From Escherichia coli (GTDB lineage Bacteria; Pseudomonadota; Gammaproteobacteria; Enterobacterales; Enterobacteriaceae), in the NCBI RefSeq assembly GCF_051903065.1, contig NZ_CP178438.1: a stretch of DNA of 64,000 bases. The stretch is one strand, 5' to 3'. Positions 10,874 through 61,019 of the stretch are shown here, piece by piece. Positions within the stretch are counted from its first letter, which is position 1, and each line of letters starts with the position of its first letter. Under the pieces are notes generated by a model. That model had not been told where the DNA came from and searched no databases. It saw only the letters and a list, made by a program, of their open reading frames with translations. Made by a program: the position numbers and the translations under genes.

Positions 10874-13800
10874 ATGGCTAACTATTTTATTGATCGCCCG
10901 GTTTTTGCTTGGGTACTTGCCATTATTATGATGCTTGCAGGTGGTCTGGCGATCATGAACTTACCGGTTGCGCAGTATCCGCAGATTGCGCCACCGACCA
11001 TTACCGTCAGCGCTACCTATCCGGGTGCCGATGCGCAAACGGTAGAAGACTCGGTCACTCAGGTGATTGAGCAAAATATGAATGGGCTTGATGGCCTGAT
11101 GTACATGTCTTCAACCAGTGATGCGGCGGGTAATGCCTCTATCACTCTGACCTTCGAGACTGGGACATCTCCTGATATCGCACAGGTTCAGGTGCAAAAT
11201 AAACTGCAACTCGCTATGCCTTCATTACCTGAAGCAGTGCAGCAGCAGGGGATTAGCGTCGATAAATCGAGCAGTAATATCCTGATGGTAGCGGCGTTTA
11301 TTTCTGATAACGGCAGCCTCAACCAGTACGATATCGCGGACTATGTAGCGTCTAGTATCAAAGACCCGCTAAGCCGTACCGCGGGCGTTGGTAGCGTACA
11401 GCTCTTTGGTTCCGAGTACGCCATGCGTATCTGGCTGGACCCGCAAAAACTCAATAAATATAACCTGGTACCTTCCGATGTTATTTCCCAGATTAAGGTG
11501 CAAAACAACCAGATTTCCGGTGGTCAACTGGGTGGCATGCCACAGGCGGCAGACCAGCAGCTAAACGCCTCGATCATTGTGCAGACGCGTCTGCAAACGC
11601 CGGAAGAATTTGGCAAAATCCTGTTGAAAGTTCAGCAAGATGGTTCGCAAGTGCTGCTGCGTGATGTCGCCCGCGTCGAACTTGGGGCGGAAGATTATTC
11701 CACCGTGGCGCGCTATAACGGCAAACCTGCTGCCGGGATCGCCATCAAACTGGCTACCGGAGCAAACGCCCTGGATACCTCGCGGGCAGTCAAAGAGGAG
11801 CTGAACCGCTTATCAGCCTATTTCCCCGCAAGTCTGAAGACGGTTTATCCTTACGACACCACGCCGTTTATCGAAATTTCTATTCAGGAAGTTTTCAAAA
11901 CACTGGTTGAGGCTATCATCCTCGTCTTCCTGGTCATGTATCTGTTTTTGCAGAATTTCCGTGCCACAATCATCCCGACGATTGCCGTACCGGTGGTTAT
12001 TCTCGGGACGTTTGCGATCTTGTCGGCGGTCGGTTTCACCATCAACACGTTAACTATGTTCGGGATGGTGCTGGCGATAGGGTTACTGGTGGATGACGCC
12101 ATCGTAGTGGTGGAGAACGTCGAGCGTGTCATTGCGGAAGATAAGCTACCGCCGAAGGAAGCGACGCATAAATCGATGGGGCAGATCCAACGTGCGCTGG
12201 TCGGTATTGCCGTTGTTCTTTCCGCAGTGTTTATGCCGATGGCCTTTATGAGCGGTGCAACCGGGGAGATCTACCGCCAGTTCTCCATCACGCTGATCTC
12301 CTCCATGCTGCTTTCAGTATTTGTGGCAATGAGCCTGACCCCTGCCCTGTGCGCCACCATTCTGAAAGCCGCGCCGGAAGGCGGTCATAAACCTAACGCC
12401 CTGTTCGCACGCTTCAACACGCTGTTTGAAAAATCAACTCAGCACTATACCGATAGCACCCGCTCGCTGTTGCGTTGTACCGGTCGCTACATGGTGGTCT
12501 ACCTGCTGATTTGCGCCGGGATGGCGGTGCTGTTCCTGCGCACGCCGACCTCTTTCTTACCAGAAGAGGATCAGGGGGTATTTATGACCACCGCGCAGTT
12601 ACCTTCCGGTGCCACCATGGTTAACACCACGAAAGTGCTGCAACAGGTGACGGATTATTATCTGACTAAAGAGAAAGATAATGTCCAGTCGGTGTTTACC
12701 GTTGGCGGCTTTGGCTTCAGCGGCCAGGGGCAAAACAACGGCCTGGCGTTTATCAGTCTCAAGCCGTGGTCTGAACGTGTCGGTGAGGAAAACTCGGTTA
12801 CCGCGATCATTCAGCGGGCAATGATTGCGCTAAGCAGTATCAATAAAGCCGTCGTCTTCCCGTTCAACTTACCCGCGGTGGCTGAACTGGGTACCGCGTC
12901 AGGTTTTGATATGGAACTGCTGGACAACGGTAACCTGGGGCACGAAAAACTAACCCAGGCACGAAACGAGCTGTTATCACTGGCAGCGCAATCACCGAAT
13001 CAGGTCACCGGGGTACGCCCGAACGGCCTGGAAGATACGCCGATGTTCAAAGTGAACGTCAACGCCGCGAAAGCTGAGGCAATGGGTGTGGCGCTGTCTG
13101 ATATCAACCAGACAATTTCCACCGCCTTCGGCAGCAGCTACGTGAACGACTTCCTCAACCAGGGGCGGGTGAAAAAAGTGTATGTCCAGGCAGGCACGCC
13201 GTTCCGTATGTTGCCGGATAACATCAATCAATGGTATGTACGCAACGCCTCTGGCACGATGGCACCGCTTTCTGCCTACTCGTCTACCGAATGGACCTAT
13301 GGTTCACCGCGACTGGAACGCTACAACGGCATCCCGTCAATGGAGATTTTAGGTGAAGCGGCGGCCGGGAAAAGTACCGGTGACGCAATGAAATTTATGG
13401 CAGACCTGGTCGCTAAACTTCCGGCAGGCGTCGGCTACTCATGGACCGGACTGTCGTATCAGGAAGCGTTATCCTCAAATCAGGCTCCCGCGCTATATGC
13501 CATTTCACTGGTCGTGGTGTTCCTCGCCCTCGCCGCACTTTATGAGAGCTGGTCAATTCCGTTCTCGGTGATGTTGGTTGTTCCGTTAGGCGTCGTTGGC
13601 GCATTACTGGCCACCGATCTGCGCGGCTTAAGTAATGACGTCTACTTCCAGGTTGGTTTGCTGACCACCATCGGGCTTTCCGCCAAGAACGCCATCCTGA
13701 TTGTCGAATTTGCCGTTGAGATGATGCAGAAAGAAGGGAAAACGCCGATAGAGGCAATCATCGAAGCGGCGCGGATGCGTTTACGCCCAATCCTGATGAC

Positions 13801-15078: not shown

Positions 15079-15323
15079 GATTATCCCTTATATTTCATAC
15101 TGCGATTATTTCAATTTCAGTATACTAATGAAATGATGCCAGACTGTTTCTTAGCGCAAAAACTGCCAGATTTGGTAGGACCAAAATTTATCCACAAAGT
15201 AGTTTTGCATAACAGTTAATTGATAATAAGTAAATGCAACACGAATATATTTTCGCACAGCGTATAGCTTATGTTTATAAAAAAATGGCTGATCTTATTT
15301 CCAGTAAAAGTTATATTTAACTT

Positions 15324-15429
15324 ACTGAGAGCACAAAGTTTCCCGTGCCAACAGGGAGTGTTATAACGGTTTATTAGTCTGGAGACGGCAGACTATCCTC
15401 TTCCCGGTCCCCTATGCCGGGTTTTTTTT
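15324..15429 (+). ncRNA. gadY: GadY small RNA
   Basis: Sequence ACTGAGAGCACAAAGTTTCCCGTGCCAACAGGGAG...CCCGGTCCCCTATGCCGGGTTTTTTTT matches my recollection of GadY; intrinsic terminator at the 3' end; -10-like TATATT just upstream; opposite strand abutting the gadX stop. Confidence 0.75.
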
Positions 15430-15445
15430 ATGTCTGAGTAAAACT

Positions 15446-49556: not shown

Positions 49557-49744
49557 TGACCATCAGCGATATCATTGAAATTATTGTCGTTTGCGCACTG
49601 ATATTTTTCCCGCTGGGCTATCTGGCGCGGCACTCTTTGCGACGCATTCGCGACACCTTACGTTTGTTCTTTGCTAAACCTCGTTATGTTAAACCGGCTG
49701 GGACGTTACGCCGCACGGAAAAAGCCAGGGCAACCAAAAAATGA
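49553..49744 (+). CDS. bcsF: Cellulose biosynthesis small membrane protein BcsF
   Basis: 63 aa with one TM helix; ATGA overlaps with bcsE and bcsG. Confidence 0.8.
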
Positions 49745-51420
49745 CTCAATTTACGCAAAATACCGCCATGCCTTCTTCCCTCTGGCAATACTGGCGCGGC
49801 CTTTCCGGCTGGAACTTCTATTTTCTGGTTAAGTTCGGCCTGTTGTGGGCGGGATATCTTAACTTCCATCCGCTCCTCAATTTGGTGTTTGCCGCGTTTC
49901 TGCTGATGCCCATTCCGCGCTACAGCCTGCATCGCTTGCGCCACTGGATTGCCCTGCCGATCGGCTTTGCTTTGTTCTGGCATGACACCTGGTTGCCTGG
50001 CCCGGAAAGCATAATGAGCCAGGGTTCGCAGGTGGCGGGGTTCAGTACCGATTATTTAATCGACCTTGTCACACGCTTTATTAACTGGCAGATGATTGGG
50101 GCCATTTTTGTTTTATTAGTGGCCTGGTTATTCCTGTCACAATGGATTCGCATTACCGTTTTTGTGGTTGCCATTCTGCTGTGGCTGAACGTACTTACCC
50201 TGGCGGGACCAAGTTTCTCCTTGTGGCCAGCCGGTCAACCGACGACCACTGTAACAACGACGGGTGGTAACGCAGCGGCAACCGTTGCGGCGACGGGTGG
50301 CGCACCGGTAGTGGGTGATATGCCCGCACAAACTGCACCGCCAACAACGGCGAACCTTAACGCCTGGCTGAATAATTTCTATAACGCGGAGGCGAAACGT
50401 AAATCGATCTTCCCGTCTTCGCTGCCCGCTGATGCTCAGCCATTTGAACTACTGGTGATTAATATTTGTTCGCTTTCCTGGTCGGATATTGAAGCCGCCG
50501 GGTTGATGTCGCATCCGCTGTGGTCGCATTTCGATATTGAGTTCAAGAACTTTAACTCCGCCACCTCCTACAGTGGCCCGGCGGCGATCCGTTTACTGCG
50601 TGCCAGCTGCGGGCAGACTTCGCACACTAATCTGTATCAACCGGCAAATAACGACTGCTATCTGTTTGATAACCTGTCGAAACTGGGCTTTACCCAGCAC
50701 CTGATGATGGGACATAACGGCCAGTTCGGCGGTTTTTTGAAAGAAGTTCGCGAAAATGGCGGCATGCAGAGCGAATTGATGGATCAAACAAATCTGCCGG
50801 TTATTTTGCTGGGCTTTGATGGTTCGCCGGTTTATGACGATACCGCCGTGCTTAACCGCTGGCTGGACGTTACCGAAAAAGATAAAAACAGCCGTAGTGC
50901 CACGTTCTACAACACGCTTCCACTGAATGACGGCAACCATTATCCGGGCGTCAGCAAAACAGCGGATTACAAAGCGCGGGCGCAGAAATTCTTTGATGAA
51001 CTGGACGCCTTCTTTACTGAACTGGAGAAATCGGGTCGTAAAGTGATGGTGGTCGTGGTGCCGGAACACGGTGGCGCGCTGAAGGGCGACAGAATGCAGG
51101 TATCTGGCCTACGTGATATCCCTAGCCCGTCTATCACCGACGTCCCCGTTGGGGTGAAATTCTTCGGCATGAAGGCACCACATCAGGGGGCACCGATTGT
51201 CATCGACCAACCGAGCAGCTTCCTGGCTATCTCCGATCTGGTGGTTCGCGTTCTTGATGGCAAGATTTTCACCGAAAACAATGTTGACTGGAAAAAACTC
51301 ACCAGTGGGTTGCCACAAACAGCACCGGTCTCCGAGAACTCAAATGCAGTAGTTATTCAATACCAGGATAAACCGTACGTTCGCCTGAACGGCGGCGACT
51401 GGGTGCCTTACCCGCAGTAA
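49741..51420 (+). CDS. bcsG: Cellulose phosphoethanolamine transferase BcsG
   Basis: 559 aa; N-terminal membrane domain, C-terminal sulfatase-like domain. Confidence 0.9.
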
Positions 51421-51425
51421 GCACG

Positions 51426-51456
51426 AAAAAGGCCGCAGAGTTTCACCTCTGCGGCC
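51426..51456 (-). terminator. Rho-independent terminator of ldr copy 1 (also ends bcsG region)
   Basis: Minus strand: GGCCGCAGAG-gtgaaa-CTCTGCGGCC followed by TTTTT. Confidence 0.6.
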
Positions 51457-51506
51457 TGATCCGGGCGCAAATTGCCATTACGGCAGCCTGACGCCCGCAT
51501 GACACG

Positions 51507-51614
51507 TTACTTCCGTTTGTTCAGCCAGTTCACGATCATACTGGCAAGAATGCCAGCAATGACCGGAGCCGCTAAATCATGCCAGAAGGCCATGCCCAGC
51601 TCTGCGAGCGTCAT
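51507..51614 (-). CDS. ldrD: Ldr-family type I toxin peptide, copy 1 (35 aa)
   Basis: MTLAELGMAFWHDLAAPVIAGILASMIVNWLNKRK; one hydrophobic helix with a basic C-terminus, as I recall for the E. coli Ldr toxin family. Confidence 0.8.
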   Translation of the reverse strand: MTLAELGMAFWHDLAAPVIAGILASMIVNWLNKRK

Positions 51615-51662
51615 ATAGCCGCCTGTGTTGTAATGACAACGTTTCGCGGCTATTCTTGTATT

Positions 51663-51728
51663 GTTTGGATGCAAGAATGGCCCCCGTGATGTTGTCAGGT
51701 GCATACCTGCAACGTGCGGGGGTTTTCT
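51663..51728 (+). ncRNA. rdlD: Rdl antisense RNA, copy 1 (approximate)
   Basis: Opposite strand about 50 nt upstream of the ldr ATG; sigma70-like promoter TTGTAA-17-TATTCT at 51628-51656; ends in hairpin CCCCCG...CGGGGG plus TTTT at 51723-51726. Boundaries inferred. Confidence 0.5.
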
Positions 51729-51908
51729 CTCTCCAGCAACCAATACCACCAGGGATTAAGCCCCCGCAACATTGCGCCTCACCGGAACCCTTCCGGCTTG
51801 CCGCTGATTCTACGACTGTTTTTCTGTTCCGGAATCCGTCACGTCTTCACTCTGTGCTGCGCATTCCGCAGAATATTATCCGCTTGCAACCGTTGCATTT
51901 TTCTTACG

Positions 51909-51939
51909 AAAAAGGCCGCAGAGTTTCACCCCTGCGGCC
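51909..51939 (-). terminator. Rho-independent terminator of ldr copy 2
   Basis: Same hairpin plus T-run as copy 1. Confidence 0.6.
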
Positions 51940-51989
51940 TGGTCCGGGCGCAAATTGCCATTACGGCAGCCTGACGCCCGCATGACACG

Positions 51990-52097
51990 TTACTTCCGCT
52001 TGTTCAGCCAGTTCACGATCATACTGGCAAGAATGTCATCAATGACCGGAGACGCTAAATCATGCCAGAAGGCCATGCCCAGCTCTGCGAGCGTCAT
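51990..52097 (-). CDS. Ldr-family toxin peptide, copy 2 (variant, 35 aa)
   Basis: MTLAELGMAFWHDLASPVIDDILASMIVNWLNKRK; differs from copies 1 and 3 at three residues (A to S, A to D, G to D) from four clustered nucleotide changes. Confidence 0.75.
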   Translation of the reverse strand: MTLAELGMAFWHDLASPVIDDILASMIVNWLNKRK

Positions 52098-52145
52098 ATA
52101 GCCGCCTGTGTTGTAATGACAACGTTTCGCGGCTATTCTTGTATT

Positions 52146-52211
52146 GTTTGGATGCAAGAATGGCCCCCGTGATGTTGTCAGGTGCATACCTGCAACGTGC
52201 GGGGGTTTTCT
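52146..52211 (+). ncRNA. Rdl antisense RNA, copy 2 (approximate)
   Basis: Same promoter and terminator-like hairpin as copy 1, shifted by one repeat unit. Confidence 0.45.
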
Positions 52212-52391
52212 CTCTCCAGCAACCAATGCCACCAGGGATTAAGCCCCCGCAACATTGCGCCTCACCGGAATCCTTCCGGCTTGACGCTGATTCTACGACT
52301 GTTTTTCTGTTCCGGAATCCGTCACGTCTTCACTCTGTGCTGCGCATTCCGCAGAATATTATCCGCTTGCAACCGTTGCATTTTTCTTACG

Positions 52392-52422
52392 AAAAAGGCC
52401 GCAGAGTTTCACCCCTGCGGCC
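52392..52422 (-). terminator. Rho-independent terminator of ldr copy 3
   Basis: Same hairpin plus T-run. Confidence 0.6.
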
Positions 52423-52472
52423 TGGTCCGGGCGCAAATTGCCATTACGGCAGCCTGACGCCCGCATGACACG

Positions 52473-52580
52473 TTACTTCCGCTTGTTCAGCCAGTTCACG
52501 ATCATACTGGCAAGAATACCAGCAATGACCGGAGCCGCTAAATCATGCCAGAAGGCCATGCCCAGCTCTGCGAGCGTCAT
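52473..52580 (-). CDS. Ldr-family toxin peptide, copy 3 (35 aa)
   Basis: Peptide identical to copy 1; the 5'-UTR region differs from copies 1 and 2. Confidence 0.8.
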   Translation of the reverse strand: MTLAELGMAFWHDLAAPVIAGILASMIVNWLNKRK

Positions 52581-52628
52581 ATAGCCGCCTGTGTTGTAAT
52601 GGCAACGTTTCGCGGCTATTCTTGAGTG

Positions 52629-52694
52629 GTCTAGGTTCAAGATTAGCCCCCGTGGTGTTGTCAGGTGCATACCTGCAACGTGCGGGGGTTTTCT
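52629..52694 (+). ncRNA. Rdl antisense RNA, copy 3 (approximate, divergent 5' part)
   Basis: Promoter and 3' hairpin conserved, but the first ~25 nt (gagtggtctaggttcaagattagccc) differ from copies 1 and 2 (gtattgtttggatgcaagaatggccc). Confidence 0.45.
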
Positions 52695-53055
52695 CTCTCC
52701 AGCAACCAATGCCACCAGGGTTAAAGCCCCCGCAACATTGCGCCTCACCGGAACCCTTCCGGCTTGCCGCTGATTTTACGATTGCTTTTTACTGTCAGCA
52801 CCCTGCAATCTTCCTCATTGCGTGATGCCTTCCAGCTTAATTTCTTAATTTGCAATAGTTGCAGTTCATATCCGGGCTGACTCCAGACTGGTAGTGAAAT
52901 GCGCAATTTTGTAGAATTGCGCCTCCTCGCGACCTCCCCAGTGAATCTGTTGCCTCATTTTTTACATACTGCGTATTCGACTTCTCCACCTGTTGCGCAA
53001 GAGAAACTGGGTTTATTCATTTTTGCGAGGCCGACTTCTTTCTGGACAGGACTTT

Positions 53056-54327
53056 ATGCAGCACAACACACTACCGAAACACGATCAGAAATTGCCGTTT
53101 ACACGCTACGACTTCGGCTGGGTTTTATTATGCATAGGCATGGCGATTGGTGCCGGAACCGTGCTGATGCCGGTACAAATTGGCTTGAAGGGAATTTGGG
53201 TATTTATTACCGCAGCGATCATTGCTTATCCTGCCACCTGGGTAGTGCAGGACATTTATTTAAAAACCCTTTCTGAAAGCGATTCCTGTAATGACTACAC
53301 CGATATTATCAGTCATTACCTGGGGAAGAACTGGGGAATTTTCCTCGGGGTTATCTACTTTTTGATGATTATCCACGGGATTTTTATCTACTCTCTCTCC
53401 GTGGTTTTCGACAGCGCCTCGTACCTGAAAACCTTCGGTTTAACCGATGCCGATCTTTCACAATCTCTACTTTATAAAGTCGCCATTTTCGCCGTACTGG
53501 TGGCGATTGCGTCTGGTGGTGAACGATTACTGTTTAAGATTTCTGGGCCAATGGTGGTGGTCAAAGTAGGGATTATTGTCGTGTTCGGTTTTGCGATGAT
53601 CCCGCACTGGAATTTCGCCAATATAACCGCCTTCCCGCAAGCCTCCGTCTTTTTCCGCGATGTCCTGCTTACCATTCCATTTTGCTTCTTTTCTGCGGTA
53701 TTTATTCAGGTACTTAACCCAATGAATATTGCCTATCGTAAACGGGAAGCAGATAAAGTACTGGCAACCCGGCTCGCGCTGCGTACCCACCGAATTAGTT
53801 ATATCACGCTCATCGCGGTGATACTGTTTTTTGCCTTTTCGTTTACCTTCTCAATTAGCCACGAAGAAGCCGTTTCTGCCTTTGAACAAAATATCTCGGC
53901 ACTGGCACTGGCCGCGCAGGTGATCCCTGGACATATCATTCATATCACCTCTACGGTGCTGAATATCTTTGCCGTACTGACCGCATTCTTTGGCATTTAT
54001 CTCGGTTTCCACGAGGCCATTAAAGGCATTATTCTCAATCTGTTAAGCCGAATTATTGATACCAAGAAAATTAACTCACGCATGCTGACTCTGGCGATCT
54101 GCGCTTTTATCGTCATTACGTTGACGATTTGGGTTTCGTTTCGTGTATCGGTGCTGGTGTTCTTTCAGTTGGGAAGCCCGTTATATGGCATTGTGTCGTG
54201 CCTCATTCCGTTTTTCCTGATCTATAAAGTCGCACAACTGGAAAAACTTCGCGGATTTAAAGCCTGGCTGATTCTGCTTTACGGCATTTTGCTATGCTTG
54301 TCGCCACTGTTGAAGCTGATTGAGTAA
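53056..54327 (+). CDS. yhjV: Amino-acid permease-like inner membrane transporter YhjV
   Basis: 423 aa from [34 protein letters not shown]; multi-pass membrane protein. Confidence 0.9.
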
Positions 54328-58454: not shown

Positions 58455-58565
58455 TGCCGGATGCGGCGTTAACGCCTTATCCGGCCTACAAAATCGTGCA
58501 AACTCAATACATTGCAGAATTTTCGTAGGCCTGATAAGCGGAGCGCATCAGGCAGTTTTGCCTTT
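58455..58565. repeat. REP/BIME element in the dppA-dppB intergenic region
   Basis: Two inverted REP units (TGCCGGATGCGGCGTTAACGCCTTATCCGGCCTAC ... GTAGGCCTGATAAGCGGAGCGCATCAGGCAG). Confidence 0.65.
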
Positions 58566-60765: not shown

Positions 60766-60853
60766 TAGGTCGAATAAGGCGTTCACGCCGCATCCGACAA
60801 TAAGTGCGGTGCCGTTGCCTGATGCGACGCTGACGCGTCTTATCAGGCCTACG
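60766..60853. repeat. REP/BIME element
   Basis: REP-like palindromes (CGAATAAGGCGTTCACGCCGCATCCGACA ... CGTCTTATCAGGCCTAC). Confidence 0.6.

Positions 60854-60942: not shown

Positions 60943-61019
<77 letters not shown>

Follow-up and report, generated by a model that had tools for sequence, protein, structure and literature searches.

The interval between bcsG and yhjV in the analysed stretch of Escherichia coli DNA (64,000 nucleotides, hereafter the window) consists of three 483-bp ldr/rdl units arranged head-to-tail. We conclude with high confidence that the interval is LDR-D of E. coli in the multi-copy form common in the species, with each of the three tandem units making up an ldr/rdl type I toxin-antitoxin cassette complete in itself. 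The three-copy array is an already known and ordinary form of the locus, because at least two copies are present at this position in about 61% of the complete genomes of E. coli.

Structure of the array

Tandem Repeats Finder reported an array at positions 51423-52795 with a period of 483 bp, 2.8 copies, 96% matches and zero indels, and a repeat search placed three in-register copies with starts at 51423, 51906 and 52389. The interval given in an earlier note on this DNA, 51424-52790, was right to within a few bases. The array is flanked by two single-copy genes on the plus strand, bcsG to the left (49741-51420, a 559-aa ORF that carries the bcsG annotation in matching genomes) and yhjV to the right (53056-54327, from the ORF list and mapped annotation). 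Repeat searches and alignment delimited the bcsG-proximal unit 1 (51423-51905) and the middle unit 2 (51906-52388), both of 483 bp, and the yhjV-proximal unit 3 (52389-52871), in which high-identity repeat homology stops near position 52795; all three are oriented on the minus strand. Each unit contains a minus-strand 35-codon Ldr ORF with a strong hairpin terminator and, on the opposite strand, a full-length Rdl. With its period of 483 bp and shared flanks, the array is a direct repeat of ~500 bp orthologous to K-12 LDR-D.

The three units are not equally similar to each other. Units 1 and 2 were identical at 474 of 483 positions (98%), and unit 3 matched them at 368-369 of 388 positions over unit columns 96-483. 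The promoter-distal ~95 bp of unit 3 were only ~75% alike to units 1 and 2 in a gapped alignment. The earlier note had described coding changes in copy 2 (A16S, A20D and G21D) and a divergent Rdl and 5′ UTR in copy 3, and both differences are real.

Ldr toxin peptides

The ldr-1 ORF (51507-51614, minus strand) encodes the 35-aa peptide MTLAELGMAFWHDLAAPVIAGILASMIVNWLNKRK, which is the common E. coli allele WP_001295224.1, present in at least 1000 contigs of a large contig collection and invariant in most sampled units. A comparison of the peptides from the ORF list showed that ldr-3 (52473-52580, minus strand) encodes the same peptide. In contrast, ldr-2 (51990-52097, minus strand) carries the rare allele MTLAELGMAFWHDLASPVIDDILASMIVNWLNKRK (WP_072025054.1) with the three substitutions, and a search of 5426 complete E. 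coli genomes found this exact ORF in only 3, while the large collection has it in 135 contigs. All peptides matched the Pfam family Ldr_toxin (PF13940) over the full length of 1-35/35, with E=1e-26 for copies 1 and 3 and E=3.4e-23 for copy 2; an NCBIfam scan of the Ldr peptides gave zero matches, which does not conflict with the Pfam result. Together with the Rfam rdlD matches described below, these hits back the proposal in the earlier note of a tandem triplicated ldr/rdl type I cassette.

A PXXXG motif and the need for a hydrophobic transmembrane segment have been described for the Fst/Ldr superfamily (PMC7472228), and the peptides were examined for a hydrophobic transmembrane helix containing PXXXG, for a charged C-terminus and for a conserved Trp. 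This signature is complete in copies 1 and 3 (P17-V-I-A-G21, W30 and the KRK tail), whereas copy 2 reads P-V-I-D-D and has lost the glycine of the PXXXG motif. The mean Kyte-Doolittle value over residues 14-29 fell from 2.02 in copies 1 and 3 to 1.33 in copy 2. Units 1 and 3 look intact, and the toxin of unit 2 is probably attenuated, because two aspartates are placed in the transmembrane helix and the PXXXG motif is broken. The Rdl and the regulatory signals of unit 2 remain intact.

Rdl antisense RNAs

Rfam model RF01813 (rdlD; gathering score 50) matched all three Rdl sequences over model positions 1-66/66, with the consensus hairpin present in each. Rdl-1 (51663-51728, plus strand; 82.9 bits, E=4e-17) is 66 nt long and has an unpaired 5′ tail, a long hairpin and a U-tail. 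Rdl-2 (52146-52211, plus strand; 82.9 bits) has the same sequence as Rdl-1, and Rdl-3 (52629-52694, plus strand; 89.2 bits) differs from both at 7 of 66 positions, with six of the differences within the first 17 nt. The predicted fold of Rdl-1 had an energy of -32.3 kcal/mol with z = -4.4, and the fold of Rdl-3 likewise had z = -4.4. Each Rdl is complementary to the segment 49-114 nt upstream of its ldr ATG, clear of the start codon and RBS, which agrees with published descriptions that place Rdl opposite the ldr 5′ UTR (PMC4147584, PMC8594479).

Across strains the single-stranded 5′ tail of Rdl was the most variable part of the unit, approximately five-fold more variable than the rest, and diversity outside the tail was low at ~0.03. 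The tails in the window would form two pairing groups, with units 1 and 2 in one and unit 3 in the other. A speculative reading is that tail diversity is kept so that the cassettes of one array form separate antisense specificity groups, and that the array is not simple redundancy; since the middle unit combines an intact Rdl with a toxin carrying two aspartates, it might then act mainly as an extra antitoxin donor buffering unit 1. We regard this reading as unlikely.

Transcription signals and leader ORFs

Every unit has a GC-rich 11-bp hairpin followed by a T-run at the end of ldr. A terminator scan located these intrinsic terminators on the minus strand at 51430-51457 for ldr-1 (11 bp, 8 of them GC, then TTTTT), 51913-51940 for ldr-2 and 52396-52423 for ldr-3. 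A consensus sigma-70 scan with a cut-off of 9/12 found zero sites, and the -10 and -35 boxes proposed here are weaker matches. The Rdl-1 promoter (51628-51656, plus strand; TTGTAA, a 17-nt spacer and TATTCT, with 6 nt between it and the Rdl 5′ end) is putative because its consensus score of 8/12, read from the sequence by eye, falls below that cut-off. The alignment of the units suggested putative -10 boxes on the minus strand for ldr-1 (TAGAAT, 51807-51812) and ldr-3 (TAAAAT, 52773-52778), and a -10-like hexamer is found at this position in all compared LDR units, including K-12 LDR-A, B and C (TAGAAT, TAAAAT or TAGTAT). We assume from sequence conservation that the ldr and Rdl genes of all three units are transcribed.

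A leader ORF, ldrX, has been proposed for ldr (PMC4147584, PMC8167048), and three candidates for it were found. The first, an ORF of 25 codons, spans unit columns 134-211; in the ldr-1 5′ UTR it lies at 51695-51772 on the minus strand (MLRGLNPWWYWLLERENPRTLQVCT) with its 3′ end under Rdl, and it is conserved in K-12 LDR-D, LDR-A and LDR-B. The second starts at an ATG that is in frame with ldr and lies 30 codons upstream of it, and the third is a 20-codon TTG ORF overlapping the ldr start. The ORF comparison showed that in unit 3 a TAA cuts the 5′ UTR ORF to 5 codons (MLRGL*, 52721-52738, minus strand), and this premature stop could matter if the 25-codon ORF is the coupling ORF.

Taken together with the K-12 literature, the layout suggests how each unit would work. 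Minus-strand transcription would give an ldr mRNA with an inferred length of ~375 nt, made up of a 5′ UTR of ~186 nt, the 35-codon toxin ORF (for a small, membrane-active peptide) and a terminator of its own. The plus strand would give a 66-nt Rdl fully complementary to part of the ldr 5′ UTR. In K-12 an unstable Rdl blocks translation of the stable ldr mRNA, over-produced LdrD is toxic and RdlD represses it (PMC4147584, PMC8167048). The ldrD-rdlD pair also gives ~21-nt dsRNA in an RNase III-dependent manner, and the RNA duplex is an RNase III substrate (PMC7373196). Coupling through a leader ORF, as in hok/mok/sok, is proposed and unproven.

The features of units 2 and 3 raise the question of whether the extra units are decaying, non-functional pseudo-cassettes without regulatory or toxic activity. 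The two aspartates and the lost PXXXG glycine in copy 2 would fit such decay, as would the truncated 5′ UTR ORF in unit 3, and no deletion phenotype has been reported for Fst/Ldr systems (PMC7472228). However, in all three units the 35-codon ORF is still open, and the terminator, a full-score Rdl hairpin and the conserved -10 boxes are still present. The invariance of the common peptide in most sampled units and the low diversity outside the Rdl tail also speak against decay; we consider decay improbable, and prefer to view the three units as self-contained cassettes.

Copy number in E. coli and the origin of the K-12 single copy

The earlier note had implied that the array was unusual and had suggested comparing its junction across E. 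coli genomes. The comparison showed that the multi-copy form is the majority state and did not bear out the implied rarity. Of the 5426 complete E. coli genomes, 3304 (~61%) had the inter-unit junction, at 6980 places in total, and the genomes that carry it span varied hosts and lineages. LdrD-type ORFs numbered 12381 in 5404 genomes, with a median of 3 and a maximum of 6. Essentially every extra copy is tandem, because the sum of 5404 and 6980 (12384) is near 12381. The array lay between bcsG and yhjV at every locus inspected, and examples with 4, 3, 2 and 1 copies were found at this site. Estimating per-genome copy numbers from the totals and evenly spaced sample rows, we found that about 30% of complete genomes have three-copy arrays and that the one-copy state is a minority of about 39%. 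PGAP routinely annotates the genes in these arrays as Ldr family, and tandem, lineage-specific duplication of ldr/rdl has already been published (Fozo 2010, PMC2887945).

A 483-bp repeat with 96-98% identity is of the type that short-read assemblers mishandle, so the three copies might have been a mis-collapsed or mis-expanded repeat. Against this, the units differ at diagnostic positions, arrays of 2-5 units occupy the site in the 3304 junction-bearing complete genomes, and three independent complete genomes have this three-unit array, with the rare copy-2 allele, at 99.6-99.8% identity. An assembly artefact was rejected on the strength of these identical arrays, and the chance that it explains the window is vanishingly small. 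The earlier note had argued for an evolved array rather than an assembly duplication, and the arrays shared by independent genomes bear this out.

The earlier note was also correct that K-12 has a single ldrD unit between bcsG and yhjV. The single copy in K-12 and the 98% identity between units 1 and 2 could be taken to mean that the window shows a recent, strain-specific triplication of a K-12-type LDR-D unit, and thus a new evolutionary event. But the same junction is found in 61% of complete genomes, the Rdl-tail types of the window units are common to several strains, and arrays of two copies lie at this position in Escherichia sp. E1V33 and in a second species representative of Escherichia. 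The scan of species-representative genomes that returned these arrays used an exact pattern, too strict for a genus survey, and found 8 loci; thus the locus exists outside E. coli. Furthermore, columns 1-216 of K-12 LDR-D are identical to unit 3 of the E. coli B-type array, and its columns 91-483 are identical to unit 1 of that array. Judged from these sequences, the K-12 single copy is a derived collapse, since it is an exact recombinant of the outer units of a B-type three-unit array. The junction frequency and the K-12 mosaic led us to reject a recent triplication, which we consider very unlikely. An import of units 1 and 2 from LDR-A/B/C was rejected as well, with ~82% identity to A/B/C versus 95% to K-12 LDR-D, and unrelated spacers.

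A recombining array is the reading we favour. The array grows, shrinks and is patched as its units undergo unequal homologous recombination and convert one another, so that copy number in the species ranges from 1 to at least 5, and the K-12 single copy is one collapse product. A possible trace of such patching lies at the start of Rdl-2, where 9 bp (52142-52150, plus strand) have the unit-1 version, whereas the nearest relatives have a different tail type. The window differed from 23CRST027 at 5 positions over 2401 bp, 4 of them inside this patch, as would fit a short tract of gene conversion.

K-12 serves poorly as a reference here, because its single ldrD/rdlD is both a minority state and derived; across the species, the norm is a recombining array with 2-5 cassettes. 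The result matters little as a discovery, and its main use is as a correction. It bears in practice on the counting of type I toxin-antitoxin genes, on the design of ldrD/rdlD knock-outs or probes in non-K-12 strains (B/BL21 derivatives have three copies) and on short-read assembly of the bcsG-yhjV region. The variability of the Rdl tail and the charged copy-2 allele offer cheap, testable but incremental leads for studying how paralogous type I systems cross-talk.

Comparison with known systems

K-12 LDR-D shares with the window the site, the flanking genes and the organisation (a toxin of 35 aa, an Rdl antisense to the 5′ UTR, and a terminator). The window units are 95-98% identical to it, and it is closest to unit 3, with 97.7% identity over the shared 393 bp (unit columns 91-483). 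It differs in having one unit instead of three, with a bcsG-yhjV intergenic region of 0.67 kb against 1.64 kb in the window, and its peptide has F3 where the window has L3. The three-copy arrays of E. coli B derivatives (NEBExpress) and of about 30% of complete E. coli genomes have the same site, 483-bp period, copy number and junction sequence as the window, and in PGAP annotation each appears as three genes of the Ldr family; the Rdl-tail type at each position varies by strain, and the window's copy-2 allele (S16, D20, D21) is rare.

K-12 LDR-A/B/C, located between kdsA and chaA, also forms a head-to-tail triplet with the same internal architecture, the same position of the -10-like hexamer and a conserved 5′ UTR. 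However, it occupies another locus and has a 535-bp period, ~82% nucleotide and 60% peptide identity and unrelated inter-unit spacers. Ibs/Sib and Zor/Orz are likewise tandemly duplicated type I cassettes, but their toxins are unrelated to Ldr and Sib overlaps the whole ibs ORF. For Ibs/Sib, near-identical antisense RNAs are reported to tell cognate from non-cognate mRNAs by short variable segments (PMC2943612), and discrimination between cognate and non-cognate partners has been reported for OrzO/OrzP (PMC8167048). The Rfam sok model (RF01794; gathering score 59) matched only the ldr 5′ UTRs of units 1 and 2, below threshold at 29.2-29.7 bits, which does not place the array in the Hok/Sok family. 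The hok/mok/sok system resembles ldr in its long 5′ UTR, in having the antisense RNA lie across from this UTR and not from the start codon of the toxin, and in the coupling through a leader ORF that has been proposed; its toxin belongs to a different family from Ldr.

A tandem array of three ldr/rdl units between bcsG and yhjV

Tandem Repeats Finder detected a single array at 51423-52795 (period 483, 2.8 copies, 96% matches, no indels), and a repeat search of the window placed in-register copies beginning at 51423, 51906 and 52389, showing that the repeat claimed in the earlier note is real and correctly located. The array is flanked by bcsG (49741-51420, plus strand) and yhjV (53056-54327, plus strand). 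Units 1 to 3 are numbered from the bcsG side, and unit columns 1-483 run along the minus strand from the yhjV-facing end. Units 1 and 2 were identical at 474 of 483 positions in the minus-strand alignment. Unit 3 matched both at 368-369 of 388 positions over columns 96-483, and its first ~95 columns, on the yhjV-facing side, were only ~75% alike to units 1 and 2 in a gapped alignment. An assembly artefact as the source of the three copies was considered and rejected. Elsewhere in the window, Rfam matched GadY, ES205, ES036, naRNA4 and a tRNA (jointly 15321-15434, 9471-9542, 58490-58532, 60768-60849 and 60946-61019); these RNA genes are unremarkable for E. coli and fit the gad-to-dpp region of the chromosome.

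Each unit carries a 35-codon ldr ORF on the minus strand (51507-51614, 51990-52097 and 52473-52580) and a 66-nt Rdl antisense RNA on the plus strand (51663-51728, 52146-52211 and 52629-52694). The three peptides were full-length matches to Pfam Ldr_toxin (E=1e-26 for copies 1 and 3, E=3e-23 for copy 2), and the three RNAs were full-length matches to Rfam rdlD (RF01813), scoring 82.9, 82.9 and 89.2 bits for Rdl-1, Rdl-2 and Rdl-3 against a gathering score of 50; the identification as a type I ldr/rdl toxin-antitoxin array was thus correct. When folded, the Rdl RNAs form the long hairpin characteristic of the rdlD family and leave the 5′ tail unpaired, with z-scores of -4.4 compared to shuffles. 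The ldr 5′ UTR is complementary to Rdl 49-114 nt upstream of the start codon, an arrangement on record for the Ldr family (PMC4147584, PMC8594479), and an 11-bp hairpin (8 GC) followed by a T-run lies 50-77 nt beyond every ldr stop codon.

In every LDR compared, the alignment showed a -10-like hexamer at columns 94-99, reading TAGAAT in units 1 and 2, TAAAAT in unit 3 and TAGTAT in LDR-A/B/C, the K-12 array at kdsA-chaA. As a putative ldr -10 it would give a ~186-nt 5′ UTR and a ~375-nt mRNA. TTGTAA-N17-TATTCT, read from the sequence, ends 6 nt ahead of each Rdl 5′ end and is a candidate Rdl promoter element. A promoter scan of this region returned no site, both putative elements scoring below its threshold. 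The ldr 5′ UTR also holds a 25-codon ORF (MLRGLNPWW...) conserved in K-12 LDR-D (the ldrD/rdlD unit at bcsG-yhjV), A and B, a candidate for the proposed leader 'ldrX', and a premature TAA cuts it to 5 codons in unit 3 (52721-52738, minus strand); the relevance of this shortening depends on the leader-ORF model, itself hypothetical. The Rfam sok model (RF01794) gave sub-threshold matches to the minus-strand 5′ UTRs of units 1 and 2 (51612-51765 and 52095-52248; ~29-30 bits against a gathering score of 59, E ~1e-3), a resemblance in keeping with T1TAdb, which notes a hok/sok-like organisation of the RNAs.

Copy number in E. coli and occurrence beyond the species

A 110-bp query spanning the unit 1/unit 2 boundary was searched in 5426 complete E. 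coli genomes and found at 6980 places in 3304 of them, with 1-4 per genome. The 108-bp ldr ORF occurred at 12381 places in 5404 genomes (median 3, maximum 6). Because 5404 plus 6980 equals 12384, nearly the 12381 found, essentially each copy past the first has a tandem junction, and at every locus inspected the array lay between bcsG and yhjV. Junction counts of 1, 2 and 3 stood at 8:18:13 in evenly spaced sample rows. Approximate shares, derived from this ratio, the totals and the median, were one copy in about 39% of genomes, two in about 11-12%, three in about 30%, four in about 18-20%, and five or more in a few. Loci examined singly included four-, three- (among them an E. coli B derivative), two- and one-copy examples. 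K-12 carries a single ldrD at bcsG-yhjV, as stated in the earlier note, and this single-copy state is not the norm for E. coli. The suggestion that the triplication is unusual did not hold, since three copies are the species median and annotated across thousands of genomes, and the phenomenon has been published. Repeated ldr-rdl loci within one intergenic region, lineage-specific duplications from LdrD-group and LdrB-group ancestors, and 2 to 10 Ldr per genome in Escherichia, Shigella and Salmonella have already been described (Fozo et al. 2010, PMC2887945). In strain E7 an IS200C transposase is annotated under the array match beside three ldr genes. Ldr-family ORFs also occurred on plasmids, at 27 places (for example the 195-kb NZ_CP195449.1, ~81% identity).

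Beyond E. coli, E. whittamii has a single copy at the locus adjoining bcsG, and Escherichia sp. E1V33 has two. In Pseudocitrobacter faecalis and P. vendiensis (loci L012 and L016) an LdrA-like toxin ORF and an Rdl core lie directly downstream of bcsG, so an ldr cassette at the end of the bcs operon is not confined to Escherichia. A 503-bp contig assigned to 'Bacillus sp. EB106-08-02-XG196' (NZ_JABWSY010000055.1, L015; coverage 0.66) carries an Rdl core together with an LdrD ORF of the E. coli type (94% identical), probably through E. coli contamination of the assembly.

Unequal recombination and probable gene conversion within the array

K-12 LDR-D (2024-2506 of the K-12 record, L001) matched unit 3 of the B-type array (NEBExpress, L005) at every position over columns 1-216 and unit 1 of that array at every position over columns 91-483. 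Judged by these identities, it joins the yhjV-proximal B-type unit to the bcsG-proximal one as an exact mosaic, with the crossover between columns 91 and 216. A single unequal crossover between the two outer units, deleting 966 bp, would leave just such a unit. One copy is therefore the derived condition, and the reference strain lost two cassettes by unequal recombination. Compared to the closest complete genome, strain 23CRST027, the window showed 5 differences over 2401 positions, and 52142-52150 contains four of these. At this 9-bp patch, at the start of Rdl-2, the window's unit 2 has the unit-1 version and 23CRST027 and ECNB21-M121 have another tail type; the pattern suggests a short tract of gene conversion. 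Rdl-tail types also occupied different array positions from strain to strain. Unequal recombination together with conversion would account for the range in copy number and the mosaic units.

Diversity of the Rdl 5′ tail

Among 25 D-type units from 10 strains, a small sample of non-independent units, nucleotide diversity was highest at columns 226-247, reaching 0.13-0.20 in two 15-column windows over 226-255 compared to ~0.03 elsewhere (about 5-fold). The peak coincides with the unpaired 5′ tail of Rdl, and no other part of the LDR-D unit was as variable: 8 of 17 tail columns varied, compared to 54 of 376 outside the tail (Fisher p=0.002, again for few and non-independent units), and eight tail types were found. 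In the window the tails (nt 1-17) lie at 51663-51679, 52146-52162 and 52629-52645. Rdl-1 and Rdl-2 are identical, and Rdl-3 differs at seven positions, of which six fall in the tail. Tail duplex energies were predicted at -26 to -28 kcal/mol when the partners are cognate, compared to -6.6 to -10.5 kcal/mol when they are not. As a modest lead, the tails may mark antisense specificity groups. The 3′ 49 nt of the window Rdls differ only at nt 27, so cross-pairing via the hairpin region remains likely.

The middle-copy toxin and comparison with K-12 LdrD/RdlD

The ldr-2 product carries A16S, A20D and G21D. The exact ORF was found in 3 of 5426 complete genomes and on 135 contigs of a larger collection, the latter marking it as a genuine lineage allele. 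Its substitutions remove the glycine of the family's PXXXG motif and add two charges to the transmembrane helix, lowering mean hydropathy over residues 14-29 from 2.02 to 1.33. In the Ldr relative Fst, mutagenesis showed that toxicity requires transmembrane hydrophobicity (PMC7472228), and by this analogy the copy-2 toxin is likely attenuated. The middle copy has probably had its toxin disarmed while the antitoxin was kept, which we regard as a modest lead.

In K-12, over-produced LdrD is lethal and is relieved by RdlD, which is thought to block translation indirectly via a leader ORF in the hypothesised manner of hok/mok/sok (PMC4147584, PMC8167048), and the ldrD-rdlD overlap yields ~21-nt dsRNA dependent on RNase III (PMC7373196). 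Units 1 and 3 may act by the K-12 mechanism, with which nothing within the window conflicts.
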